A stretch of DNA of 64,000 bases, taken from an uncultured Candidatus Saccharibacteria bacterium. GTDB lineage: Bacteria; Patescibacteriota; Saccharimonadia; CAZBQI01. Of the stretch, positions 2,906 through 61,314 are shown piece after piece (position 1 is the stretch's first letter; every line of letters starts with the position of its first letter). The stretch is from assembly GCA_964494105.1 (NCBI GenBank), contig CAZBQI010000005.1:10646-74645 (forward strand), given 5' to 3'. Under the pieces are notes generated by a model. It was not told the DNA's origin. It searched no databases and saw only the letters and a program-made list of their open reading frames with translations. The position numbers and the translations under genes are program-made.

Positions 2906-3643
2906 ATGAATGATAAGCAAATAGATCTTAGTATTGTTATACCCGCCTACAATGAAGCAAAACGTATCGGCCAAAGCCTAGAGACTCTTGCCGAATATCT
3001 GAAACAATCATCAAGGTTTGGCAATGTTGAGGTTATAGTAGTTGCCGCAAGAGGAAGAGACAAGACATTAGATGTCGCAAAGGCTAAGAAGCAGCTTTTC
3101 GAAACATTTGTACCAATCGACGCCGGTGCACATATCGGTAAGGGTCGGGATGTAAAAATGGCTATGCTAAAAGCTCGAGGCAAATACCGAATATTTATGG
3201 ACGCCGATTTGGCTACGCCCCTAAAACACCTCGAAGATGTACAGAAAAACATCTTACAGCACAAAGACGTAATTATCGGCACAAGAGACTTGACATCATC
3301 GCACAAAGGTTTACGCAAATTTATCTCAAGTTTCGGAAATATCTTAATTCGTATTTTATTGGGACTAAAAATTAATGACACTCAATGCGGATTTAAATGT
3401 TTTAGAGATGACGTAGCAACTGATTTGTTTGGCGCACAGACAATTACAGGGTGGGGCTTTGACATGGAGGTATTGGCAATAGCCAAGTATCGAAAATACT
3501 CAATCGTAACATTGCCAATCGAAGACTGGCAGGATGTGGCCGGTGGTACTTTTAAAAATGTAGCGGTATCCGGAGCTTTATCTACATTTAAGGACTTACT
3601 GAAGATTAAACTCAATTTATTATCAGGCAAATATAAGCAGTGA
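2906..3643 (+). CDS. GT2 polyprenol-phosphate sugar synthase (GtrB / Ppm1 / DPM1-like)
   Basis: LSIVIPAYNEAKRI near the N-terminus, a DAD motif (FMDADLATP) and a QCGFKCF block. 245 aa, soluble. Confidence 0.85.
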   Translation: MNDKQIDLSIVIPAYNEAKRIGQSLETLAEYLKQSSRFGNVEVIVVAARGRDKTLDVAKAKKQLFETFVPIDAGAHIGKGRDVKMAMLKARGKYRIFMDADLATPLKHLEDVQKNILQHKDVIIGTRDLTSSHKGLRKFISSFGNILIRILLGLKINDTQCGFKCFRDDVATDLFGAQTITGWGFDMEVLAIAKYRKYSIVTLPIEDWQDVAGGTFKNVAVSGALSTFKDLLKIKLNLLSGKYKQ

Positions 3644-5451: not shown

Positions 5452-6042
5452 ATGCTACCTGCAGCTTTAGAATCGCTAATCTCCGAACTTGGCCGTTTGC
5501 CTGGAATTGGTCCTCGAACGGCTGAGCGCTTAGCGTTTTTTTTACTAAAAGCAAACCGCTCGCAAAGCACTCAGCTTGCACGGAGCCTAGAAGACCTGCA
5601 TGCAAATATTCGGTCGTGTAAAACTTGTTTTAACCTTAGTGAGAATGATTTGTGCTCAATTTGCCTCAGTACTAAACGCGACCCATCGGTTATAGCCGTA
5701 GTAGAAGAGCCACTTGATGTTATAGCACTTGAAAAAACAGCAATGTATCACGGCAAATACCATGTACTCGGCGGGGTAATATCACCAATTGACGGTATTG
5801 GGCCAGAGCAACTACACATTAGGCAACTACTTAGTCGTCTAGCAAATAACAATGTCAGTGAAATAATATTAGCGCTCAACCCTAGCACAGAGGGCGAGGC
5901 AACAGCACTCTATTTGCAACGGCAATTTCCACCCGAGGTAAAGGTTACGCGTCTAGCCCGCGGTCTACCTATGGGTAGTGATCTTGAGTATGCTGATCAA
6001 ATAACTCTGGGCCGTGCCCTAGAAGGCAGACAGGCAGTATAG
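5452..6042 (+). CDS. recR: Recombination protein RecR
   Basis: N-terminal HhH (PGIGPRTAERLAF), C4 zinc finger (CKTCFNLSENDLCSIC) and Toprim domain; 196 aa. Confidence 0.9.
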   Translation: MLPAALESLISELGRLPGIGPRTAERLAFFLLKANRSQSTQLARSLEDLHANIRSCKTCFNLSENDLCSICLSTKRDPSVIAVVEEPLDVIALEKTAMYHGKYHVLGGVISPIDGIGPEQLHIRQLLSRLANNNVSEIILALNPSTEGEATALYLQRQFPPEVKVTRLARGLPMGSDLEYADQITLGRALEGRQAV

Positions 6043-6043
6043 A

Positions 6044-7051
6044 ATGTCTAATCTACTATTCGAGTCACTACACAATCACACAAAGTCTTCTGACGGCAAG
6101 CAAGACCATCTACAAGTACTCGCATCCGCCGAAAGACACGGTATAGGCGTTATTGCATTTACCGATCACGACATCCTGCCCAGTCAAGAGAACTTAAAAA
6201 TACTGAAAGCTTACAATGGACCGGTTAAGTGGCTTTGTGGTATCGAGTTAACATCACGATTGCCAAGAGAATTAAACAAACCGGGCACATTACATATACT
6301 AGGGCTATTTACAGACCCTATGAACAAGGAATTGCGTGAGTATTCGGATCACGTTGTAGCCTCACGCATCGAGCGAATGAAGCACTTTGTGAAAGAACTG
6401 AATTCTATTGGTTTTAAGTTAACCGAAAGTCAGTGTATGTCTGCTGCCGATGGTGCCCCGGTTGGCAATCCTCATGTAGTTAAAGCGTTACTAGCAAATC
6501 CAGATAATGTGAAGCGCATGGATGAAATAAAAAAAGAAATGTCCAAGGTAGCAGAGTCCAACCCTGAGGTTCGCTTCCGCTATGATCGAATGCTAGAAGA
6601 AGGTGAGCAAACGTATCCCTATGTACTATTCATGAAACGTAGCTCTTTTTACCCGATGGCACCAAGCAAATCAAGCGAATCCATACTAGACCTAGATGCC
6701 AGCGTTAAGCTCATAAGGCAATCCGGCGGAGTAGCCTTGCAAGCTCATTGGTTTTTTCATCAAAGCATTCTTTCGGAGAGCAAATTAACCGAGCTAATAA
6801 AAGATACCCGACTAGATGGGGTAGAGACAGATGTAAAAAATCTCATTACGCCTCGCGACGTTCGCAAGGAAACAAAGTTTCTAGAGGATTTAGCTCGTAG
6901 ACACAATGCTCTTGAATCAATTGGAGCTGATGCACATGATGATAAAGATTTAGAGTTTTTTGCAAAGTCCGAAGCAGCCCAAAATTCTATTGGTCAAACC
7001 AAGAAAATGATTAACGAATTTCACCCAAACCTCGAGTGGTCTAATCTCTAA
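6044..7051 (+). CDS. PHP-domain metal-dependent phosphoesterase
   Basis: HNHTKSSDG and AFTDHD motifs of the PHP (polymerase/histidinol phosphatase) fold. Confidence 0.7.
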   Translation: MSNLLFESLHNHTKSSDGKQDHLQVLASAERHGIGVIAFTDHDILPSQENLKILKAYNGPVKWLCGIELTSRLPRELNKPGTLHILGLFTDPMNKELREYSDHVVASRIERMKHFVKELNSIGFKLTESQCMSAADGAPVGNPHVVKALLANPDNVKRMDEIKKEMSKVAESNPEVRFRYDRMLEEGEQTYPYVLFMKRSSFYPMAPSKSSESILDLDASVKLIRQSGGVALQAHWFFHQSILSESKLTELIKDTRLDGVETDVKNLITPRDVRKETKFLEDLARRHNALESIGADAHDDKDLEFFAKSEAAQNSIGQTKKMINEFHPNLEWSNL

Positions 7052-7666: not shown

Positions 7667-9016
7667 ATGAAACTATATAATTCGCTAAGTAAAAAACTAG
7701 AGGAATTTCAACCACTAAAAAAGGGAAGTGTGGGGCTCTACACTTGTGGGCCAACCGTTTACGATCACGTGCACATTGGCAACTTACGAACCTATATTTT
7801 TGAAGACACGTTAAGACGGATGCTCAAATTAAGTGGATTAAACGTACAGCATGTTATGAACATCACCGATATAGAAGATAAGATATTTACCCGTAGCAAG
7901 AAACAATATCCAAACGAACCTGTTAGCAGCTCGTATAAAAAACTCACCAACAAATTTGAAGAACTTTTTTTTGAAGACACTAAAAAACTAGCTATCGACC
8001 TAGTAGCTTCTACAATCATTCGGGCCACAGACGCAATAAGCGACATGCAGACCCTAGTATTAAAAATCCCGAATAAATACATAACTGATGACGGGGTGTA
8101 TTTCGATATCAGTGAATACCCCGACTACGGCGTATTCACGAAACTTGATACCACCCATGAGCATCATCGTATCAACAATGATGAATACGATAAAAACCAT
8201 GTTGCTGACTTTGCTCTATGGAAGGTAGCAAAAGGCGACGAACCCAGCTGGGACTTCAAGATAGATGGTAAAACACTAAACGGACGACCAGGCTGGCACC
8301 TGGAATGCTCTGCCATGGCCACTAGGTACCTTGGTCAGCCTTTTGATATACATACCGGCGGAATAGATCTGAAATTCCCACATCATGAAAACGAGATTGC
8401 TCAAAGCAAGTCAGCTAATGGTAATAATTTAGCTACTACCTTCGTACACGCCGAGCACTTGCTGGTTGATGGCAAAAAAATGAGTAAGAGTTTAAATAAC
8501 TTTTACACACTCGAAGATATTATCAAAAAGGGATACAACCCATTGGCATTTCGACTATTGATACTCCAAGCGCATTATCGCTCGCAATTAAACTTTTCCT
8601 GGGAATCCCTGCAAGCGGCCCAAAGCTTTCTACTCAAAGTCTATGAGGTTGCTGATCTTTCGTTTCAAACACAACCTGGTGACATTTCAGAAATTCAACT
8701 AAAAAACATGCTGGGTAGTTTGCAAGACGATCTTAATACGCCGGCAGTAATTGCTGAATTGGCCAGATTTATCGAAAACAACCCAAATGTTGCATTGCCT
8801 AAGGCGTTAATCGAATTTATTGATGCGTCACTAGGATTGGCAATAGGGGATCGGGAAGATGCTTCTGGCGAGCAAAAGGTGCTCATTAAACAAAGGAACG
8901 TCTTGCGTGATAATGGTGATTTTGCCGGTGCCGACGTAATTCGTACACAACTCAAAGCAGATAGTATTCTATTAAACGATACTGCAAAAGGAACTTTTTG
9001 GTATAGAGCTATTTAG
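7667..9016 (+). CDS. cysS: Cysteine--tRNA ligase
   Basis: HIGH motif (HVHIGNLRT), KMSKS present verbatim, zinc-binding Cys (WHLECS). Confidence 0.95.
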   Translation: MKLYNSLSKKLEEFQPLKKGSVGLYTCGPTVYDHVHIGNLRTYIFEDTLRRMLKLSGLNVQHVMNITDIEDKIFTRSKKQYPNEPVSSSYKKLTNKFEELFFEDTKKLAIDLVASTIIRATDAISDMQTLVLKIPNKYITDDGVYFDISEYPDYGVFTKLDTTHEHHRINNDEYDKNHVADFALWKVAKGDEPSWDFKIDGKTLNGRPGWHLECSAMATRYLGQPFDIHTGGIDLKFPHHENEIAQSKSANGNNLATTFVHAEHLLVDGKKMSKSLNNFYTLEDIIKKGYNPLAFRLLILQAHYRSQLNFSWESLQAAQSFLLKVYEVADLSFQTQPGDISEIQLKNMLGSLQDDLNTPAVIAELARFIENNPNVALPKALIEFIDASLGLAIGDREDASGEQKVLIKQRNVLRDNGDFAGADVIRTQLKADSILLNDTAKGTFWYRAI

Positions 9017-10116
9017 CTTATCTTTGCCTTATACTCATCTTTGGGGCTATTTCTTAGGCTAATGTTCTTGCCTTCAAGATAATCCATTACAAGTATCCTG
9101 GCGCACGCAGCCAGGGGAATCGCAACTAGAGCCCCGAGCAAACCGGCTATATTTGCCCCAATTAATGCAGAAGCTAAAATTAACAAAGGCGAAATATTGA
9201 CAGCTTTTGACTGAACTAATGGCTGAACGAAATTGTTTTCCAGTTGTTGATAGATTAATAAGTATATCCCGAGAATAATTGCCGCTGGAACCGAATTGAA
9301 TAAGGTGATTATAACCAGCATTACGCCACTTATCGTCGCCCCAATTAAGGGTACCAAGTTTAGAAACCAAACTACTCCAGTTAAAGGCAGAGCGTATGGT
9401 ATGCCGATAATCCTTAACGCAATATATGCACTCGTAGCGCCTAATGTGGCAATAAGCAATTGCCCATTAACGTAACCAGTTACCACCTTGTACATTTCGT
9501 TAGCGAGTTTCTTTCGGTGTTTGCGCTTTTCTTCTGATTGCAACATCCAAAAGCGTTCAAGCCACGCCGGACCTTCGACTACCATAAAGAACGTCAGAAC
9601 CAACACTGTTAATAAAGCAGCCACCGTAGATATCACTCGTTTCGCCGTAGTAAAAACAGGACCACTAATTTCCGTCACTCGGCTACTTTGACGCTCATAT
9701 ATGCCCTCTAGTGTGTCGGGAATATTATACTTTCGTGCCAGTTCGGCCTGACGGGAATCGGATGTCTCGATAGCGTTAATGTATGTAGGTGCTTTTTCTA
9801 CAACCTGACGAGTTTGGCTAATTAACGGTGGAATCACAATATATAGCAAACCACCGATTACACTCAAAACAACAATGTAGGCTGCGCCGGTGGCAAGTCC
9901 GCGACTATCCTTTGGCATTTTTCGCGCCAGCGAATTAACCGGTCGCGAAAGAGCTATAGCCAAAAAAAGCGATATACCTAAGAGCGAAAAAGCAGTCCGC
10001 GCAATATAGACAAACCAAATGCCAAGAAAAAATAATGAAATTATTGCTAATACCCTAAATACGGTTCGATTGCTAACAGTAGTGCGAATACTCAGTAGAT
10101 CTGATATTTTTTTCAT
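9013..10116 (-). CDS. AI-2E family (PerM/UPF0118) membrane transporter
   Basis: 367 aa, about 8 TM helices, typical AI-2E glycine-rich C-terminal helices. Convergent 4-nt overlap with cysS. Confidence 0.75.
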   Translation of the reverse strand: MKKISDLLSIRTTVSNRTVFRVLAIISLFFLGIWFVYIARTAFSLLGISLFLAIALSRPVNSLARKMPKDSRGLATGAAYIVVLSVIGGLLYIVIPPLISQTRQVVEKAPTYINAIETSDSRQAELARKYNIPDTLEGIYERQSSRVTEISGPVFTTAKRVISTVAALLTVLVLTFFMVVEGPAWLERFWMLQSEEKRKHRKKLANEMYKVVTGYVNGQLLIATLGATSAYIALRIIGIPYALPLTGVVWFLNLVPLIGATISGVMLVIITLFNSVPAAIILGIYLLIYQQLENNFVQPLVQSKAVNISPLLILASALIGANIAGLLGALVAIPLAACARILVMDYLEGKNISLRNSPKDEYKAKIS

Positions 10117-13667: not shown

Positions 13668-13967
13668 CTACTTTAGTGGTCTCTTTTTCTTTTCGTATTC
13701 AACAACAACGTAAGAACCCAGTGCAGCCCCGAACGCTACTGGAAGTATGTAAAAGTAATTTGAGACGATAGCAACAACCTATACGGCAAGTGTAGTGTAG
13801 AGAATAAAAGTAACTAATGCAGATCTTAATGACTTATGCTGAGTAAGAGAAAAAGTCAAAGATGTGTCTAGCATTTCAACTAAAAAATAGAAGACGAATA
13901 AACCTAGCGCAAACAGAATACTGAAACTATCTAGCGCTTCGCTCGGTGAGAGAAGTTTGATGTCCAT
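13668..13967 (-). pseudogene. Small membrane-protein ORF interrupted by a single in-frame TAG at 13779-13781
   Basis: The 62-aa ORF (13779..13967) continues in the same frame past the TAG for another 36 hydrophobic codons (VVAIVSNYFYILPVAFGAALGSYVVVEYEKKKRPLK) to a second TAG at 13668. Confidence 0.25.
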
Positions 13968-14049
13968 AAATTCATTATATCAAGGCAACTAACACAGATA
14001 CCGCAGCGTCATTATTCTTATACTGGCTGGTGGGAAAAATTAGCAACTA

Positions 14050-14123
14050 TGGCTTCGGGACTAGGATTCGAACCTAGATTGCTGGGACCAAAACCCAGTG
14101 TCCTACCATTAGACGATCCCGAA
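14050..14123 (-). tRNA. tRNA-Gln (anticodon TTG)
   Basis: The reverse complement folds as a cloverleaf: acceptor TTCGGGA/TCCCGAA, anticodon loop TTTTGGT, T-arm CTAGG-TTCGAAT-CCTAG, encoded CCA. Confidence 0.9.
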
Positions 14124-14239
14124 ATATTTTGTGTCGCCAACTATCTATTGTGCCAGACTATCAGAAAACTCTCTACCTTTAATTGAATATCCGGTTGGTT
14201 ATTTATACTTGTGTAAGCGAGCGTTATAATAGTGTGTAA

Positions 14240-14812
14240 ATGGAACACGAACAAAGTACCGAACAAATAGAAAAACAAGGTAGTTTTGGGGAGCCGACCA
14301 TTCCAAAACCAGTGGAAACACCACCTGAGCCACCAAAGCGCCGCAAACCTAAGCCACTGCGCATAGTTATTACAACCATTGCCCTCGGTGTCTCGTTTGG
14401 AGTTTTTGGTATTGTTATCTACTATCAGTTTTACAACCAAAGAAACCCGGCTAGCTACACGCCTCCTCCGGCTGTTTCACAAATTAGTGAATATCCGGAC
14501 ACCTATAAGCAGGCGAAGTTACCAGAATACCCAAATGCCGAGATTACCAGTTCTGGTCAAAAAACCGCCACACTTAATGACGGCATAAATGTTATTGTGC
14601 GAACTTACGATGACATTCCCACTGTCGCCAGCTTTTACGATAAGGCGCTTGTGGCTAATGACTGGAAACCCGACGATTCTATAACCAGCGATACGGCTGG
14701 AAAGGTTTACTACAAAACTTATATTAAAGGAGATGCTAAGTATACAATTACCGCTACCAGCTCAAATCAAGTCAGTGGCACCGATATTAGCATTAGCTAT
14801 GTAAAAAGGTAG
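14240..14812 (+). CDS. Hypothetical membrane-anchored protein with a Pro-rich linker and extracytoplasmic domain
   Basis: 190 aa; Pro-rich segment PKPVETPPEPPKRRKPKP, one TM helix, C-terminal beta-rich domain. Confidence 0.5.
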   Translation: MEHEQSTEQIEKQGSFGEPTIPKPVETPPEPPKRRKPKPLRIVITTIALGVSFGVFGIVIYYQFYNQRNPASYTPPPAVSQISEYPDTYKQAKLPEYPNAEITSSGQKTATLNDGINVIVRTYDDIPTVASFYDKALVANDWKPDDSITSDTAGKVYYKTYIKGDAKYTITATSSNQVSGTDISISYVKR

Positions 14813-14845
14813 TTGTTATACTGGATAAACACTTTAAAAATTCCA

Positions 14846-14998
14846 AAGTATCTAGAGTGCAGCGAGGGATCTAGCCTTACGACCTGCCGGCAACCAGCGA
14901 ACATGCGGGTGCCAATTCTAGCCCGTAACCAAACGGAAAAGATGCGCAATAAAGATAAAAAGCCGTCCTTTCCGTTAAGTAATAGAAAGGATTTTTTT
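14846..14998 (+). promoter_or_regulatory. SAM-I (S-box) riboswitch leader of metK, aptamer plus terminator expression platform
   Basis: ATCTAGAGTGCAGCGAGGGATCTAGCC...CCGGCAACC...GGGTGCCAATTCTAGC...GAAAAGATGCGC aligns block-for-block with the SAM-I consensus (AUCAAGAGNGGCNGAGGGA / GGCAACC / GGUGCCAAUUCC / GAAAGAUGAG). It is followed by hairpin TCCTTTC..GAAAGGA plus T7. Confidence 0.8.
14966..14998 (+). terminator. Intrinsic terminator of the SAM riboswitch expression platform; it sequesters the metK RBS
   Basis: tcctttc cgttaagtaata gaaagga ttttttt immediately 5' of the ATG at 14999; GAAAGGA doubles as the Shine-Dalgarno. Confidence 0.65.
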
Positions 14999-16102
14999 AT
15001 GCCAACTACAGTTTTTACCAGTGAGTCTGTCTGCGCTGGCCACCCAGATAAACTGTGCGATCAAATTAGCGATGCAATCTTGGACGCTGCAATTGCGCAA
15101 GACTCTTTTGCTCACGTAGCAGTCGAGACACTGGCCGCAAAAGACAGGCTAGTGCTGGCAGGGGAAATCACAACAACCGCCAAGCTAAACATTGAGGCTA
15201 TTGCACGTGAGGAAATTAAACGAATTGGCTACACTGAACCTAAATGGGGCTTTTCACATCATTCACCAATTTCTAACTATCTCCATCAGCAATCACCAGA
15301 AATCGCAGTTGGCGTTAAACTCGATGGAGCAGGTGACCAAGGAATGATGTTTGGTTTTGCTTGCAACGAAACATCCGAGCTAATGCCTGTTCCAATAATG
15401 TTGTCACATGCCTTAACTAAGCGCCTAGATGAAGTGAAAACTAATGAGCTCATGTATTTAAGACCAGATGGTAAAGCCCAAGTTAGCGTAGAGTACACTA
15501 ACGGCAAGCCAACCAGCGTCAAGCAGGCTGTTATTGCCGTACCGCACAGCAAACGAGTCGACCTAAATCAAGTAAAACGTGACGTGATGAATTATGTAGT
15601 TAAGCCGGTTTTGGATAAGTACAAATTTAAAATTAGCCCTAAAGACTTGATAGTAAACGGCACAGGTGTATGGCACATGCCGGGGCCTGCTAGTGACGCC
15701 GGACTAACCGGACGTAAAATTGCCGTTGATAGTTATGGTAGCTACGCCAGCCTTGGCGGAGGAGCATTTAGCGGCAAAGATCCAACTAAGGTTGACCGCT
15801 CCGGTGCATACGGCGCACGCTATGTAGCGAAAAACATAGTAGCTTCCGGACTAGCCAAAAAATGCGAGGTACGAGTGGCATACTACATAGGCGCCCACAA
15901 GCCAACTATGTGTGAAGTAGAAACTTTTGGCACAGAAACAAAAAGTCATCTGGCAATTCATAAATATATTAATAACTTACTCGATTTATCAGTACGTGGG
16001 ATAATCGAAACTCTAGATTTGCGTCGGCCCCTATACAAACGAACTGCTGCTTATGGTCATTTTGGTCGTAACGAATTCCCTTGGGAGCAAATAGCAAGTT
16101 AG
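14999..16102 (+). CDS. metK: S-adenosylmethionine synthetase. True start is the ATG at 14999; the TTG-start extension from 14813 is spurious.
   Basis: FTSESVCAGHPDKLCDQISDAILDA and GAGDQGMMFGFACNET are MetK signatures. The upstream extension is occupied by the riboswitch. Confidence 0.95.
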   Translation: MPTTVFTSESVCAGHPDKLCDQISDAILDAAIAQDSFAHVAVETLAAKDRLVLAGEITTTAKLNIEAIAREEIKRIGYTEPKWGFSHHSPISNYLHQQSPEIAVGVKLDGAGDQGMMFGFACNETSELMPVPIMLSHALTKRLDEVKTNELMYLRPDGKAQVSVEYTNGKPTSVKQAVIAVPHSKRVDLNQVKRDVMNYVVKPVLDKYKFKISPKDLIVNGTGVWHMPGPASDAGLTGRKIAVDSYGSYASLGGGAFSGKDPTKVDRSGAYGARYVAKNIVASGLAKKCEVRVAYYIGAHKPTMCEVETFGTETKSHLAIHKYINNLLDLSVRGIIETLDLRRPLYKRTAAYGHFGRNEFPWEQIAS

Positions 16103-17079
16103 TCTGAGTGTTGACTTTCTTTTTCGCGCCGACGTTCAGCCAGTTCACTTGAACGCGTCTCTGGCTCTAGCTGAATGTGGTAAGCCCCCGGCACTGCCTG
16201 TTTAATACTAGCTTTTATTTCATCTATTATTTCTTCAATTGAGTCTGTGTTAAGTCCGTCTTTAAAGTGTACATCTAGATTTATTAAGTATTTTTCTGGA
16301 CCAATAATCATTGTCCGTAAATCCGGAATATCTATAACAGCCGAGTGCGAAAGAGCTACTCTCTTAATTTTGGCTCTAATCGCAGGTGGTGCGCTGTGCC
16401 CAGTAATAAGATCTTTGATGCTTATCAAAAGAATGAATGCCAGCACTGCAAGCATGCATCCGATTAGAACGGCACCAATCCCATCAAAGCGTTGAATACC
16501 TGTAACCTGGTAGAGTATTAAGGCAACTAAACCAAGAGCCGCCGACATTGAGCCCATTAGGTCTAATACGTAAGTAATCTTAGTGGCAATATGCTGTGAT
16601 TTGAAGAATGCTTTCCAGATTTGTCTTAGCTTTTTGCCATCTAGAATTTTTACTGCACTCAAACGAAATGCATATAGGTTTGTACTCATCGCAATTATTA
16701 ACACAGCATACGCAATGTATAGGTGATTAATTGGTTCTGGATTTACAATATTCTGCCAACCAAAATAAATTGAAAAACTTGCTGTTATGGAAAAGATAAT
16801 GAAGGCCGAAATAAGTGCCCAAAAATAAAGCTCTTTTCCGTAGCCGAATGGATGATCAAGCGTAGAGTGTTTTTTCGCCCGCTTATGTCCAAGCATGAGC
16901 AAACAGACAGATGTAAAATCGGCAAAACCCTGCATAGCCTCGGCAAGCATAACAGTACTGCCGGTAAACACTGCTACGACAATATTCATTACTACGTCAC
17001 TTATGTCTACCAGGAGGGTAGTTATAAGCGTGCGGCTGGTAGATATTCCTGCAGTATTATCGGTAGTCATTTTGTTCAA
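16099..17079 (-). CDS. Cation diffusion facilitator (CDF) family metal efflux transporter
   Basis: 326 aa, six TM helices plus a C-terminal cytoplasmic domain; overlaps the metK stop. Confidence 0.75.
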   Translation of the reverse strand: MNKMTTDNTAGISTSRTLITTLLVDISDVVMNIVVAVFTGSTVMLAEAMQGFADFTSVCLLMLGHKRAKKHSTLDHPFGYGKELYFWALISAFIIFSITASFSIYFGWQNIVNPEPINHLYIAYAVLIIAMSTNLYAFRLSAVKILDGKKLRQIWKAFFKSQHIATKITYVLDLMGSMSAALGLVALILYQVTGIQRFDGIGAVLIGCMLAVLAFILLISIKDLITGHSAPPAIRAKIKRVALSHSAVIDIPDLRTMIIGPEKYLINLDVHFKDGLNTDSIEEIIDEIKASIKQAVPGAYHIQLEPETRSSELAERRREKESQHSD

Positions 17080-17109
17080 GTTAAGTATAGCAATACCATT
17101 ATGGCTTTG

Positions 17110-18528
17110 CTAAGTATTCCGATAGCGAACTACCAGATCTTTGGCATCATTAATCGATTTTACCAGCCCTTTATCGTAAGCATTATTAAGCAAAGTTAGA
17201 ATCCCACCGAGCTCTTTGCCATCAACATAACCAAACTCGTGCTTAAGCCAGGTCCCGTCAACCCCAAATTCTTTTTTTAAAGTTGGTTGTGGGTTCGAAC
17301 GTTGTGCTTGGAATTCCTTCCACATTGCTGTAATTTCGCTAAATTCGGGGATAGTCTTATGTAATTTGCCCTCTGCGCTGTAAGACCAACTGGCGTGAGC
17401 ATCAGCTTTATGAAGCTCCAGTAAATCGCTAAAGGCATTATTGCTCATCATACTTCGTTGGTGTGCCGGTGTCATCTTAGGTAAATCATCTATGCCTAAA
17501 TGGTATTCAATCATCCAGCAAACCTCTGCGGTAAAGACTTTTGAAAATTTGAGCCGAACAAGCAGATTTTTGGCAATGTTCGCTCCAACCCGAAAATGAT
17601 CGTTGAATCTTATCCTGTCATTACTGGCCTGTGGCAGCTTAAGAGTGGGTGGTTTCCCGATGTCGTGCAAGAGAGTAGCCCACACTAAGCGAAGCGAGGC
17701 GTCAGCTGGCAACGAGTCCAGAGCTAGCACGGTGTGAGTAAACACGTCTCCTTCAGCGTGCATATCTTTTGGTTGTGCAACACCCTTGCCAGCCACAACT
17801 TCTGGTAAGATGTCTTTTAACGCTCCAATTTGATCCAGCATATCTATTAACTTGCGCTTTTTGGGAAGTAGAAGCATTAGATTAAGCTCCTGACGCAGTC
17901 GGTCAGTTGCAATTTGCGCTAAAACACCATTTTTTATGGCACTTTTTATGGCTTCGCCTGTAGTTGCAGTAAAATTAAAATTAAGCTGATGCACAAATCT
18001 TATTCCACGCATTACGCGAAGTGGGTCCTCCTGTATTCGTGTCGTTGGGTCACCGATAAAGCGAACTAATTTCTTGTCTAGGTCTTTTAGTCCTTCGACT
18101 TCGTCCAGTAAGTAGCTATTTTGGGGGTCTAACGCCAGTGCATTGATTGTAAAATCTCGGCGTTTCAAATCATCTTCGATATGAGCGAACTCTACTTTCG
18201 TCAGACTTCTCCCCAGGTGCGCTTCAATATCTCTTCTATAGGTAGTAATCTCGAGCTTTATTCTGCTTCCACCCCGAACTCTTATTTTTACTAATGTGAC
18301 ACCAAAAGCCTGCGCAGGATGAACCGGCTTGACGTCTTCAAACTCTTGAACTTTTGCTATTTCTTCCGGTGTAGCATTGGTTACAAGATCGAAATCTTTC
18401 GGATCTAGTCCAAGTAGAATATCTCTGACTGCGCCACCGATTATATAGCTTTCAAAGCCAGCCGTACTTAAAGCCTTGGCAGCTAAACTAGCTGCTTCTA
18501 GCTCTGATGAATCTGATGATGCTACCAT
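17110..18528 (-). CDS. cca: CCA-adding enzyme / tRNA nucleotidyltransferase with HD domain
   Basis: Pol-beta head motif YIIGGAVRDILLGLDPKDFDLVT and HD motif LLHDIGKP. Confidence 0.85.
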   Translation of the reverse strand: MVASSDSSELEAASLAAKALSTAGFESYIIGGAVRDILLGLDPKDFDLVTNATPEEIAKVQEFEDVKPVHPAQAFGVTLVKIRVRGGSRIKLEITTYRRDIEAHLGRSLTKVEFAHIEDDLKRRDFTINALALDPQNSYLLDEVEGLKDLDKKLVRFIGDPTTRIQEDPLRVMRGIRFVHQLNFNFTATTGEAIKSAIKNGVLAQIATDRLRQELNLMLLLPKKRKLIDMLDQIGALKDILPEVVAGKGVAQPKDMHAEGDVFTHTVLALDSLPADASLRLVWATLLHDIGKPPTLKLPQASNDRIRFNDHFRVGANIAKNLLVRLKFSKVFTAEVCWMIEYHLGIDDLPKMTPAHQRSMMSNNAFSDLLELHKADAHASWSYSAEGKLHKTIPEFSEITAMWKEFQAQRSNPQPTLKKEFGVDGTWLKHEFGYVDGKELGGILTLLNNAYDKGLVKSINDAKDLVVRYRNT

Positions 18529-37874: not shown

Positions 37875-37963
37875 TGGTGCCGCGGGTGGGAGTCGAACCC
37901 ACACTCCCGGTAAAGAGAACTGGATTTTGAGTCCAGCGCGTCTGCCAGTTCCGCCACCGCGGC
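37875..37963 (-). tRNA. tRNA-Leu (anticodon CAA), long variable arm, encoded CCA
   Basis: The reverse complement GCCGCGGTGGCGGAACTGGCAGACGCGCTGGACTCAAAATCCAG...GTGGGTTCGACTCCCACCCGCGGCACCA shows anticodon loop CTCAAAA, T-arm GTGGG-TTCGACT-CCCAC and a 17-nt variable arm. Confidence 0.9.
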
Positions 37964-52976: not shown

Positions 52977-53053
52977 GGCCCCGTCGTCTAGCGGTTTAGG
53001 ACATCTGGTTCTCATCCAGAAGATCGCGGGTTCGAATCCCGCCGGGGTCACCA
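52977..53053 (+). tRNA. tRNA-Glu (anticodon CTC), encoded CCA
   Basis: GGCCCCGTCGTCTAGCGGTTTAGGACATCTGG-TTCTCAT-CCAGAAGATCGCGGGTTCGAATCCCGCCGGGGTCACCA folds as a cloverleaf. Confidence 0.9.
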
Positions 53054-59558: not shown

Positions 59559-60133
59559 AATTAATAGTCGGCCTCGGCAATCCAAAAGATAAATATACCA
59601 AGAACCGACATAACCTCGGCTTTATGGCGCTTGACTACTTTGTTGAGCAAAACGAACTTGAAGCGTTCAAACAAGATGATAAATTTCATGCGGACGTTAG
59701 CGAATGCAACATTAATAGCACTAAAGTAATACTCGCAAAACCAAGAACATTTATGAATGCCAGTGGCGAGTCCGTAAGACTGTTAACTAAATTTTACAAG
59801 ATAAAAGCGGCTGATGTACTGGTCATCTACGACGAGTTAGCACTAGATTTTGGTTTAGTGCGAACCCGCGAAGAGGGCAGTAGTGCCGGACATAACGGGG
59901 TAGAATCGATCATCAAAATATTGGGTAAATCATTTAGTCGGGTGCGCGTGGGCATATCTAACGAACACGCCAAAAAGACAGAAGCTAGCGTTTTTGTACT
60001 GGCTGATTTCAGTAAAGACGAAGAAAGCCAGCTTCCAAAAATACTTGATTATGTTAACCAACTAGTACATGAGTTTATTTATAACGATAAGCTAGACGAA
60101 CACACTCACAATACCCTAGAAAATCTACTTTAA
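59555..60133 (+). CDS. pth: Peptidyl-tRNA hydrolase
   Basis: MKLIVGLGNPKDKYTKNRHNLGF and catalytic His/Asp context; ATGA overlap with der. Confidence 0.9.
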   Translation: MKLIVGLGNPKDKYTKNRHNLGFMALDYFVEQNELEAFKQDDKFHADVSECNINSTKVILAKPRTFMNASGESVRLLTKFYKIKAADVLVIYDELALDFGLVRTREEGSSAGHNGVESIIKILGKSFSRVRVGISNEHAKKTEASVFVLADFSKDEESQLPKILDYVNQLVHEFIYNDKLDEHTHNTLENLL

Positions 60134-60139
60134 ATAAAA

Positions 60140-60345
60140 GAGACCTCAAGTGGGTGGGGTAGTCTTGAGGCCTCATTACACCCTTCAACGCCCACTTGAC
60201 ACGCTACCGGTGAGACATTAAATGCACTCGATTGGCAGCTTCACCCACAAGGGGCGAATAGTCCCCACCAAAGGGAACGAAGAAGGGTTGAAGGGGTTAA
60301 ATCACCCCCTGGGGAGGAGGACACCAACACACAAGGGGTAATTTA
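60140..60345 (+). ncRNA. Candidate structured non-coding RNA or RNA element of unknown class (GC-rich, nested long-range complementarity)
   Basis: Local GC around 55% in an AT-rich spacer. Pairings: CCTCAAG/CTTGAGG (60147/60164), GGTGGGG/CCCCACC (60153/60262), CCCTTCAAC/GTTGAAGGG (60181/60287), GCCCACTTG/CAAGGGGC, GGGG-ttaaatca-CCCC. No ORF. Strand is uncertain. Confidence 0.35.
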
Positions 60346-60459
60346 ACAATATTTCTACTTATGTTTAAATGGTACCTAAGAGAGCCTCACACGCAACTCT
60401 TATGTCTATATATAAACACTTATGTATATAAATGTCAATACTTTATATAATACTTATTT
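60346..60459 (+). promoter_or_regulatory. AT-rich array of four (A/T)CTTATKT repeats with TATATA boxes upstream of dprA
   Basis: ACTTATGT at 60357, TCTTATGT at 60398, ACTTATGT at 60418, ACTTATTT at 60452; spacing about 41, 20 and 34 bp; interleaved tatatataa and tatataat. Confidence 0.35.
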
Positions 60460-61314
60460 ATGAAAATCAATAGCATAGAATCCAAATCAAACGAATACCC
60501 AGTTTTGCTAGATGAAATAGCGCATCCGCCAAAGACAATACATACCCTAGGTAGCTTGCCACTTGAAAAACCTTATGTAGCAATTGTGGGCAGTCGCCGG
60601 GTATCGCCCTATGGTAGGGAAGTCACCAAAACTCTAGCTTATGATTTAGCAGCCTGCGGAGTTGTGATCGTGAGCGGTTTGGCATTGGGTGTAGATGCTA
60701 TAGCGCACCAATCGGCTATAGATGCCGGCGGAAACACAATTGGGGTCTTAGCCTGCGGGCTTAACCAAATTTATCCTATTACAAATCGTTATTTAGCCAT
60801 GAAGATTCTTGAAACAGGAGGTGGGTTGATAAGTGAATACGAAGAGGGCACCCCACCCTTAAAACACCATTTCCCGGCTCGCAACCGAATAATTACCGGA
60901 CTCAGTATGGCTGTAATTGTTACCGAAGCTGCCGCCCACAGTGGAGCATTAATAAGCGCGAACTTTGCACTCGAGCAGAACCGACTTGTAATGGCGGTAC
61001 CTGGCAATATTACCTCCAGGTTAAGCGAGGGTAGCAATAACCTTATAAAAAGCGGGGCAATCGCCGTTACTAGCGCTAGTGATGTTTTGGCCGCACTTGA
61101 TATGGAAGTACCGGAACTCAAGGCTAAAATTGCGAAGCCGGCCAGCGCTGAAGAAGCGGTAATATTAAACCTGCTAGCAAACGAAATTACGGATAGCGAG
61201 GAGCTTCTTGCCAAAAGCGGATGGGAGATCGCTAAGTTCAACCAGGTGCTTACCTTGATGGAAATCAGTGGCAAAGTCAGAAACTTAGGCGGAGGCAAGT
61301 GGCTTAGTAAATAG
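60460..61314 (+). CDS. dprA: DNA-processing protein DprA (Smf)
   Basis: Rossmann-like core VAIVGSRRVSPYGREVTKTLAYDLAACGVVIVSGLALGVDAIAHQ and GAL..ANFALEQNRLVMAVPG. Confidence 0.9.
   Translation: MKINSIESKSNEYPVLLDEIAHPPKTIHTLGSLPLEKPYVAIVGSRRVSPYGREVTKTLAYDLAACGVVIVSGLALGVDAIAHQSAIDAGGNTIGVLACGLNQIYPITNRYLAMKILETGGGLISEYEEGTPPLKHHFPARNRIITGLSMAVIVTEAAAHSGALISANFALEQNRLVMAVPGNITSRLSEGSNNLIKSGAIAVTSASDVLAALDMEVPELKAKIAKPASAEEAVILNLLANEITDSEELLAKSGWEIAKFNQVLTLMEISGKVRNLGGGKWLSK

Follow-up and report, generated by a model that had tools for sequence, protein, structure and literature searches.

A predicted structured RNA gene, read divergently from dprA, in the pth-dprA spacer of Saccharibacteria

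Background

What does the 326-nt spacer between pth and dprA in a saccharibacterial genome hold: a leader of the downstream genes, a regulator-binding array, or a gene in its own right? The Saccharibacteria, like the Patescibacteria generally, are epibionts with reduced genomes whose regulation is almost unknown, and they scavenge nucleotides. The question arose with a 64-kb stretch of DNA from an uncultured Candidatus Saccharibacteria bacterium (contig CAZBQI010000005.1 of assembly GCA_964494105.1, positions 10,646 to 74,645), hereafter the window, to which the letters, open reading frames (ORFs) and coordinates given below refer unless another locus is named. In the window both genes are on the plus strand, with the end of pth at 60133 and the start of dprA at 60460, and the spacer under study is 60134-60459. 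A first-pass annotation, made by eye from the letters, divided this spacer into a GC-rich, highly self-complementary element of about 200 nt and an AT-rich half with CTTATGT repeats, and proposed either a non-coding RNA gene (6S-like or novel) followed by a regulator-binding array, or a long structured leader of dprA-topA. Here we argue that both halves belong to one structured RNA gene on the minus strand, which is very probably real, and weigh how its product might act.

Conservation of the element in Saccharibacteria

Related loci were fetched via Pth homologues at 82% to 47% identity. The resulting set comprises 13 loci, namely the window, L002, L003, L005, L006, L008, L009 (identical to L012), L010, L013, L014, L027, L028 and L029, of which the window, L002, L003 and L005 are close relatives. 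The named Pth homologues come from Candidatus Saccharimonadales or Patescibacteria, and two genome matches are titled uncultured Candidatus Saccharibacteria. The element is present at all 13 of these saccharibacterial loci, always on the strand opposite to pth and dprA, and directly upstream of and divergent from dprA. The homologous spacers that the first-pass annotation had proposed to seek in related genomes were thus found at every locus, with compensatory changes in their stems (see below).

Eleven of the homologues are supported by sequence. L028 and L029 are graded as probable distant members because a leave-out profile misses both; their assignment is based on position, layout, the sequence of the P2 helix and the loop motif described below. 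Searched with an nhmmer profile of the 3' segment, each locus, like the 64-kb window as a whole, yielded exactly one copy; the leave-out version recovered L013 (E = 6e-11) and L009 (E = 6.5e-6). A 40-nt stretch of the RNA (GGGUGUAAUGAGGCCUCAAGACUACCCCACCCACUUGAGG) is 100% identical where Pth is only 60% identical, and the RNA is, by such sequence comparison, more conserved than the neighbouring proteins.

A strict DNA pattern (TTGARGGG-N7-AGGCC-N5-10-CCCCACCC), searched in genome contigs, matched two metagenome-assembled genomes of Saccharibacteria and, by chance, one site in Variovorax. A looser pattern gave one true match (L014) and 12 chance matches in GC-rich DNA among metagenome contigs. 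As the two patterns led to only two GTDB species and one contig of the Joint Genome Institute, the close clade appears to be poorly represented in the searched collections; the patterns also miss the diverged L027, L028 and L029, and hence understate the distribution. A Microgenomates outgroup contig (L030) has the gene order pth, mfd, dprA, and no homologue of the RNA was found on it. Origin from a mobile element was considered and set aside, as blastn searches of phage and plasmid collections returned no match to the element. Taken together these comparisons indicate that the RNA is kept at this locus in a clade of Saccharibacteria.

A predicted minus-strand transcription unit

The partition of the spacer into a GC-rich, self-complementary half and an AT-rich half is borne out by GC content, inverted repeats and folding. 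In 100-nt windows GC is 0.52-0.54 over 60150-60349, against 0.21-0.27 over 60350-60499, and is 0.31-0.44 just upstream of the GC-rich half. Four of the five complementarities originally listed are real inverted repeats, namely CCTCAAG/CTTGAGG (I3), GGTGGGG/CCCCACC (I17), CCCTTCAAC/GTTGAAGGG (I4) and a GGGG-loop-CCCC hairpin (I1), while the fifth, GCCCACTTG/CAAGGGGC, falls outside the conserved structure. The transcription signals that we recognize in the spacer all point to the minus strand:

60433 to 60438, minus strand: -35 box TTGACA.
60410 to 60418, minus strand: extended -10 element, made up of TG(T) and then TTATAT, at a spacing of 17 nt from the -35 box.
60403 to 60406, minus strand: predicted transcription start, about 7 nt after the -10 hexamer, placed by promoter geometry only.
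60134 to 60139, minus strand: U-tract UUUUAU and predicted 3' end, abutting the pth stop codon (60131-60133).

In all 12 of the homologues that have a recognizable promoter, the -35 box (TTGACG in L028) keeps its distance from the RNA, and the 17-nt spacing and a T/A-rich -10 hexamer are likewise retained; most homologues also have TG 1 nt upstream of the hexamer. L029 lacks TTGACA and possibly uses TTCTAA-17-TAGATA instead. At the other end, a U-tract follows the terminal hairpin (T, see below) in each of the 13 sequences. Read on the plus strand the same hairpin has no downstream T-run, and pth consequently lacks a plus-strand terminator. A consensus promoter and terminator scan of the region reported neither RNA signal, since its rules demand A at position 2 of the hexamer and a loop of 3-8 nt. 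We infer the promoter and terminator from the sequence itself, and their conservation backs this reading.

Folding energies agree with this orientation. The segment 60134-60350 folds at -94.1 kcal/mol on the minus strand (z = -7.2, with 0 of 200 shuffles as good), against -71.1 kcal/mol on the plus strand (z = -2.6); over the full predicted transcript, 60134-60406, the z-scores are -5.4 and -2.3, respectively. Seven ORFs of 20-39 amino acids overlap the region, but a small-ORF reading was rejected because indels of 1-3 nt among close homologues break every frame, leaving no conserved small ORF. The features by which bacterial small RNA (sRNA) genes are generally recognized, i.e. a promoter, a terminator, the lack of a conserved ORF and structure-preserving substitutions, were all found as sequence signals. 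These observations indicate that the RNA lies on the minus strand, pointing from dprA towards pth, and that the gene covers about 270 nt rather than the roughly 200 nt of the element as first delimited. The idea that the spacer holds a structured non-coding RNA gene rather than mere spacer sequence is upheld by the fold, the conservation and the compensatory changes.

Architecture of the RNA

Each homologue was folded from its predicted start, and all share a common layout consisting of a 5' hairpin (P0), a linker, a long hairpin (P1), a P2 domain, a second linker and the terminal hairpin T. In the window the parts are, from 5' to 3' of the RNA:

60377 to 60402, minus strand: P0, 5'-terminal hairpin with UAAGAG/CUCUUA arms, seen in minimum-free-energy folds.
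60348 to 60376, minus strand: A/U-rich P0-P1 linker with one ACAUAAG copy, unpaired in the centroid fold and variable in sequence between lineages.
60296 to 60347, minus strand: P1, hairpin of 15-16 bp with the C-rich loop GUCCUCCUCCCC (inverted repeat I1, an RNAalifold helix).
60287 to 60295, minus strand: P2 5' strand CCCUUCAAC, pairing with 60181-60189.
60190 to 60286, minus strand: P2 interior, with the P2b extension and hairpins P3 (GUUCCC..GGGGAC), P4 and P5; the junction segments GGUGGGGACUA and GUCAAG are conserved.
60181 to 60189, minus strand: P2 3' strand GUUGAAGGG (inverted repeat I4).
60175 to 60180, minus strand: A/U-rich linker UGUAAU between P2 and T, unpaired in all folds and variable (AUGCAU, AGAUAU, UUUAAU and others).
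60140 to 60174, minus strand: terminator-type hairpin T, with an 11-bp stem and the 13-nt loop ACUACCCCACCCA (inverted repeat I3).

The most variable part is the P2 interior. Three hairpins are found there in the window group, L010, L014 and L027, and a different arrangement in L006 and L008. The reduced forms (L009, L013 and L028) have a single hairpin with the loop UGGUGUCGC, and L029, the most distant homologue, has an extra hairpin of about 170 nt in the P2 domain (about 5720-5900, minus strand). The P1 loop carries CCUCC in 8 of the 13 homologues. Hairpin T reads GAGGCCUCAAG-ACUACCCCACCCA-CUUGAGGUCUC, followed by UUUUAU. Its loop always carries CCCCACCC or CCCACCCC; the core CCCCACCC is identical in 12 of the 13 homologues, and L029 has CCCACCCCC. 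Beyond pairing, the sequence itself is conserved in P2, at the base of the terminal hairpin and in the junction segments (GACUA, GUCA).

Compensatory changes in the helices

An alignment of seven sequences (MAFFT followed by RNAalifold) gave 49 consensus pairs, 18 of them compensatory. Its helices are paired in 95% of cells; column shuffles gave 84% and slid registers 36-54%, and none of 500 shuffles reached any of five measures. Compensatory pairs in the RNAalifold consensus include 8 of the 15 pairs of P1 as well as pairs of P4 and P5. Because MAFFT misaligns the variable P2 interior across lineages, we also built a curated alignment of the stems alone (P0, P1, P2 and T) for all 13 sequences, with the helix registers taken from each sequence's own minimum-energy fold. 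Here 98.2% of cells are paired, against 80.1% in shuffles, and 26 of the 36 pairs show two-sided changes: 5 of 6 in P0, 10 of 10 in P1 (where the correspondence of columns across lineage groups is partly arbitrary), 5 of 9 in P2 and 6 of 11 in T. The covariation score is 0.521 against 0.184 in shuffles, of which 0 of 500 reach the observed value; this count is not a probability. Four of the sequences are close relatives.

P2 and T are anchored by conserved flanks and show clean compensatory changes. In P2, paired in 99% of cells, these include CCUUUUGAU/AUCGAAAGG in L028 and GCCUUUAAC/GUUGAAGGC in L029; in T, paired in 100% of cells, they include CCGUAAG/CUUGCGG, CCACAAG/CUUGUGG and AGAGCCUACAG/CUGUAGGCUCU. 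Variants of the P0 arms such as UACGAG/CUCGUA, UACGAU/AUCGUA and AAGGACG/CGUCCUU likewise preserve pairing. A hand count from the pair-type table of the curated alignment gave 31 G.U cells against 2 A.C cells in the helices, an excess which indicates that the minus strand is the functional one.

The AT-rich half and its repeats

The AT-rich half had been described as a separate array downstream of the RNA. It instead appears to hold the promoter and 5' end of the RNA gene itself, and the repeats are distributed over these elements:

60358 to 60364, plus strand: CTTATGT copy 1, ACAUAAG in the P0-P1 linker of the RNA; degenerated in L005 and absent in more distant homologues.
60399 to 60405, plus strand: CTTATGT copy 2, ACAUAAG forming the first nucleotides of the RNA and the P0 5' arm; the best conserved copy.
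60419 to 60425, plus strand: CTTATGT copy 3, within the spacer of the promoter, where it borders the TG-extended -10 element on its upstream side.
60452 to 60458, plus strand: degenerate copy CTTATTT, between the -35 box of the RNA and the dprA ATG (60460); repeat families D1 and D2.

The local cluster is genuine, with three exact copies in 68 nt (at 60358, 60399 and 60419) besides the degenerate one at 60452, but its interpretation as a regulator-binding array is unsupported. The transcript would include two of the four copies and the promoter spacer a third, and beyond the closest relatives only the P0 copy is conserved, evidently as part of P0. Across the whole window CTTATGT is not enriched (12 found against 10.5 expected), and a second cluster at 16882-17362 lies inside coding sequence and was put down to chance. 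A protein may bind the repeats, a possibility for which we found no supporting evidence.

How might the RNA act?

On balance the evidence leans towards an independent minus-strand RNA gene of about 270 nt whose product acts in trans through its C-rich loop; of the two parts of this reading, the gene itself is far the more secure, and the proposal that a stable RNA acts in trans through the invariant loop is advanced tentatively. Among the modes of action weighed here, trans action by the loop ranks first, a scaffold or ribonucleoprotein role comes a close second, and a role in cis is third.

Under the favored reading, the gene at 60134-60406 would be transcribed divergently from dprA from the sigma-70-type promoter in the AT-rich half, and transcription would end at the intrinsic-terminator-type hairpin and U-tract beside the pth stop codon. 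The RNA would fold into the 5' hairpin P0, the long hairpin P1, P2 around one to three hairpins, and T, whose large loop would present the invariant CCCCACCC as a functional contact. This loop may pair with G-rich RNA in the manner of the C-rich-loop sRNAs of Gram-positive bacteria, or a protein may hold it, or both, and further unpaired CCUCC motifs may assist it in some lineages. In the curated alignment the T loop is invariant while the T stem covaries. Unpaired CCUCC motifs beyond the T loop occur in the window group, L009, L013, L028 and L029: the window group has CCUCCUCCCC in the P1 loop, and the reduced forms L009 and L013 have three unpaired C-rich motifs in all, ACCUCCCA, ACCCUCCA and CCCCACCCA, of which ACCUCCCA and ACCCUCCA are additional to the T loop.

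Among the closest known parallels are RsaE/RoxS and the UCCC/C-rich-loop sRNAs of Firmicutes (RF01820). The spacer RNA resembles them in its predicted own promoter and intrinsic terminator, in the low-GC, Gram-positive-type lineage, and possibly in the conserved C-rich motifs that its loops and linkers display, which number three in the reduced forms; we know of no Hfq in its lineage. In RoxS, four C-rich regions pair with G-rich sequences of the targets (PMC5419742). In contrast to these sRNAs, the spacer RNA has a conserved multi-helix domain and two to three times their length, and its universal C-rich motif CCCCACCC is no obvious anti-Shine-Dalgarno sequence. It also shows no sequence similarity to them, and no covariance-model match to RF01820 was found on the window region or at seven homologous loci.

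Several observations weigh against action in trans through the loop, or against the reading as a whole. The complement of CCCCACCC, GGGUGGGG, is not a canonical Shine-Dalgarno sequence, and sites resembling GGGUGGGG that occur in the window, or in the genes around the RNA at 11 loci, lie in coding regions or are not conserved; near start codons, no conserved site complementary to the loop was found across the 64-kb window or among the genes flanking the RNA at these 11 loci. Unpaired CCUCC motifs are absent from L006, L008, L010 and L014, and so are not universal. Most lineages offer the loop a good partner within the RNA itself (GGUGGGG or GGGUGGG), which could sequester it. The multi-helix domain, together with the sequence-conserved P2 and hairpin base, exceeds what a simple base-pairing sRNA needs, which favors a protein-bound or tertiary-folded RNA. 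Finally, the promoter, start and 3' end are predicted from sequence, and the sampling is thin, with 13 loci that include four close relatives, and a leave-out profile that did not detect L028 or L029.

One loop-complementary site lies close to topA. In L002 (4235-4243, plus strand) the C-terminal DprA motif LGGGKW is encoded as GGGTGGGGG, complementary to the RNA loop and about 70 nt upstream of topA. The codon usage differs in the window and L003, so that this site is not conserved and is probably coincidental.

A folded, lineage-specific scaffold or ribonucleoprotein component of housekeeping type is a possible alternative, which we consider slightly less probable than trans action by the loop. 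The T loop would then dock on the internal GGUG(GGG) as a pseudoknot or kissing loop, shutting the P2 domain into a definite three-dimensional form for recognition by a protein or ligand. The best duplex that the loop can form within the RNA is indeed with GGUGGGG or GGGUGGG inside the P2 domain, and 12 of the 13 homologues have a GGUG motif in the P2 interior. The internal partner surpasses shuffled sequences (p <= 0.03) in L010, L014, L027, L006, L008 and L029, with p of 0.06-0.09 in the window and L003. In L029, where the loop has changed to GUGCCCAC, the internal GUGGGCAC matches it, an apparently compensated change. Conservation of the sequence itself in P2, the terminal hairpin base and the junctions fits such a role, as does a single-copy gene with a strong predicted promoter and a fixed position over deep divergence. 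However, the reduced forms L009, L013 and L028 keep the loop sequence without a significant internal partner (p 0.26-0.83), and loop and partner are nearly invariant, so that true covariation is confined to the single case of L029. Moreover, GGUGGGG doubles as the 3' arm of P3 in the full forms, so that its complementarity to the loop may be incidental, and no candidate protein partner was identified.

A related and weaker possibility is that this is a Saccharibacteria-specific RNA with a role beyond antisense-type regulation, either a ribonucleoprotein subunit or a regulator tied to the DNA-uptake and recombination module dprA-topA, with the CCCCACCC loop and the P2 junction as a protein- or ligand-binding site. 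The raiA motif RNA (RF03072), like similar orphan structured RNAs of Gram-positive bacteria, offers a further comparison: it too is structured, about 200 nt long, with a multi-helix junction, conserved junction nucleotides, its own terminator, a possible pseudoknot and a fixed genomic neighbourhood. The raiA RNAs are often found near the competence gene comFC, and the spacer RNA always adjoins the competence gene dprA. The two differ in helix layout and in phylum, and the raiA covariance model matched neither the window region nor the seven homologous loci.

A role in cis, to which the RNA product would be secondary, is unlikely. Running antisense to read-through from der-pth, or colliding with it, transcription of the gene could insulate dprA-topA from the upstream operon; or its back-to-back promoter could set dprA-topA expression through promoter competition or transcription-induced supercoiling. 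The divergent adjacency of the RNA and dprA is unbroken in 13 of 13 loci, while the interval between the RNA and pth is interrupted in L005, L006, L010 and L028. At most loci (L008, L009, L013 and L027 among them) no more than about 20-25 nt separate the -35 box of the RNA from the dprA ATG, no plus-strand terminator follows pth, and the consensus scan found no canonical plus-strand promoter for dprA. The dprA gene is reduced to a fragment of 97 amino acids in L027, where the RNA is intact. This persistence beside a decayed dprA speaks against a role in cis alone, as does the selection on the folded RNA that is shown by the compensatory changes, the minus-strand-specific G.U pairs and the invariant loop, a selection that a purely cis or transcriptional effect would not require. 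In small genomes, moreover, a gene order may endure even where the genes are not functionally coupled.

Two features of the intergenic DNA bear on how dprA itself might be expressed. A TATAAT at 60446-60451, 8 nt before the dprA ATG, may give a leaderless dprA mRNA, and read-through from pth, antisense to the RNA, may also occur, there being no plus-strand terminator.

Comparison with known RNA families

That no known family matches the element, as had been noted by eye, agrees with searches against Rfam 15 (4227 models) and with ARAGORN. At the gathering threshold Rfam found only three tRNAs and a riboswitch in the whole window, all elsewhere. At E <= 10 the region 60000-60600 gave chance matches only (JUMPstart at 15 bits, snoR120 at 18 bits), and at E <= 5 nothing fell on the element at the seven homologous loci. 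ARAGORN reported no tRNA or transfer-messenger RNA (tmRNA) in 59900-60700, and our search of the literature found no paper describing such an RNA.

A diverged member of a known housekeeping family (6S, signal recognition particle (SRP), RNase P or tmRNA) that the Rfam models missed is therefore very improbable. Patescibacterial RNAs are often divergent, we know of no annotated 6S RNA in Saccharibacteria, and the paper search returned none. Against this stand the Rfam and ARAGORN results above, the unpaired ends and lack of a central bubble, the absence of P4-type pseudoknot motifs and of a domain IV motif, and a length of 200-280 nt, too short for RNase P RNA or tmRNA. The spacer RNA shares with 6S RNA (RF00013) its size range, its non-coding nature and, given the strong predicted promoter, a probable abundance. 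The 6S-like identity suggested at first nonetheless fails: there is no Rfam 6S match at E <= 10, and both the 13 single-sequence folds and the seven-sequence RNAalifold consensus show unpaired 5' and 3' ends and four separate domains instead of a long interrupted rod with a central bubble. tmRNA was rejected on the lack of an ARAGORN result or Rfam match, and RNase P and SRP RNAs on the lack of a match at E <= 10. A resemblance to the SRP Alu domain (UGUAAU followed by a hairpin, and a GGUG loop) was also discounted, as the UGUAAU linker is not conserved among the homologues and no model matches.

The terminator hairpin that immediately follows the P2 multi-helix domain with its conserved junctions recalls an attenuating riboswitch. 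A riboswitch or other cis leader on the minus strand was rejected, however, as the RNA is followed, in the window, L002, L003, L008 and L009, by the 3' end of the convergent pth. A downstream gene on the same strand is absent in 9 of the 13 loci, which argues against a riboswitch, and the gene present in L005 has its own TTGACA-17-ATAATA promoter right after the RNA terminator. Furthermore, no alternative anti-terminator pairing was seen in the spacer RNA, and its terminator loop shows a conservation that an expression platform would not call for.

Least probable of all is the original proposal of a plus-strand leader or riboswitch for dprA-topA with a repeat array, which has in its favor the position upstream of dprA and a plus strand slightly better than shuffles (z -2.3 to -2.6). 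The strand and terminator of the RNA exclude a structured leader: the promoter, like the hairpin with its U-tract, faces the minus-strand way, the minus strand folds far better, and the G.U pairs become A.C mismatches on the plus strand. The repeats overlap the 5' end of the RNA as well as its promoter, and the array as such is not conserved. For annotation this means that the spacer should not be labelled a dprA leader, and that the hairpin after pth belongs to a convergent RNA gene.

Implications

The RNA represents an uncatalogued sRNA gene family of Saccharibacteria, of a familiar kind in having, as predicted, its own promoter and terminator; as a family it would be new, and hardly any regulatory RNAs are known from this phylum. 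Structured, single-copy, equipped with a strong predicted promoter, more conserved than the neighbouring proteins and locked to dprA, the RNA merits attention, and it is a concrete candidate for the first characterized regulatory or ribonucleoprotein RNA of the phylum. According to a transcriptome study of TM7x, that strain has no validated small RNAs (10.1101/2022.03.25.485537). Saccharibacteria are naturally transformable and have been engineered by allelic exchange (PMC10633639).

Additional features of the locus and the window

Genes are inserted between the RNA and pth at four loci (L005, L006, L010 and L028), and none between the RNA and dprA. Those of L005 (3076-3495) and L006 (3117-3539) lie on the minus strand and encode proteins of 139-140 amino acids without a Pfam match, and that of L010 (6564-6839, minus strand) encodes a 91-residue Fer4_15 ferredoxin. 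In L027 the dprA remnant (5849-6142) encodes a winged-helix fragment, and topA lies away from its usual downstream place. Upstream of the RNA promoter, L003 has about 90 nt of extra sequence (3400-3491) that includes a second TTGAC box and lengthens the spacer to dprA.

On the Microgenomates contig L030, pth is followed by a non-coding gap of 730 nt (8526-9255) with a hairpin of about 100 nt (8731-8832) that drew only spurious microRNA-type Rfam matches, and an ORF resembling a reverse transcriptase (13697-14932, a faint RVT_1 match) lies between dprA and topA. Elsewhere in the window, the Rfam scan placed three tRNA genes at 52977-53050 (plus strand), 14053-14123 (minus strand) and 37878-37963 (minus strand), and an S-adenosylmethionine (SAM) riboswitch (RF00162) at 14845-14948 on the plus strand (48 bits, against a gathering threshold of 44.4), upstream of an ORF with a likely ATG at about 14999 and its end at 16102.

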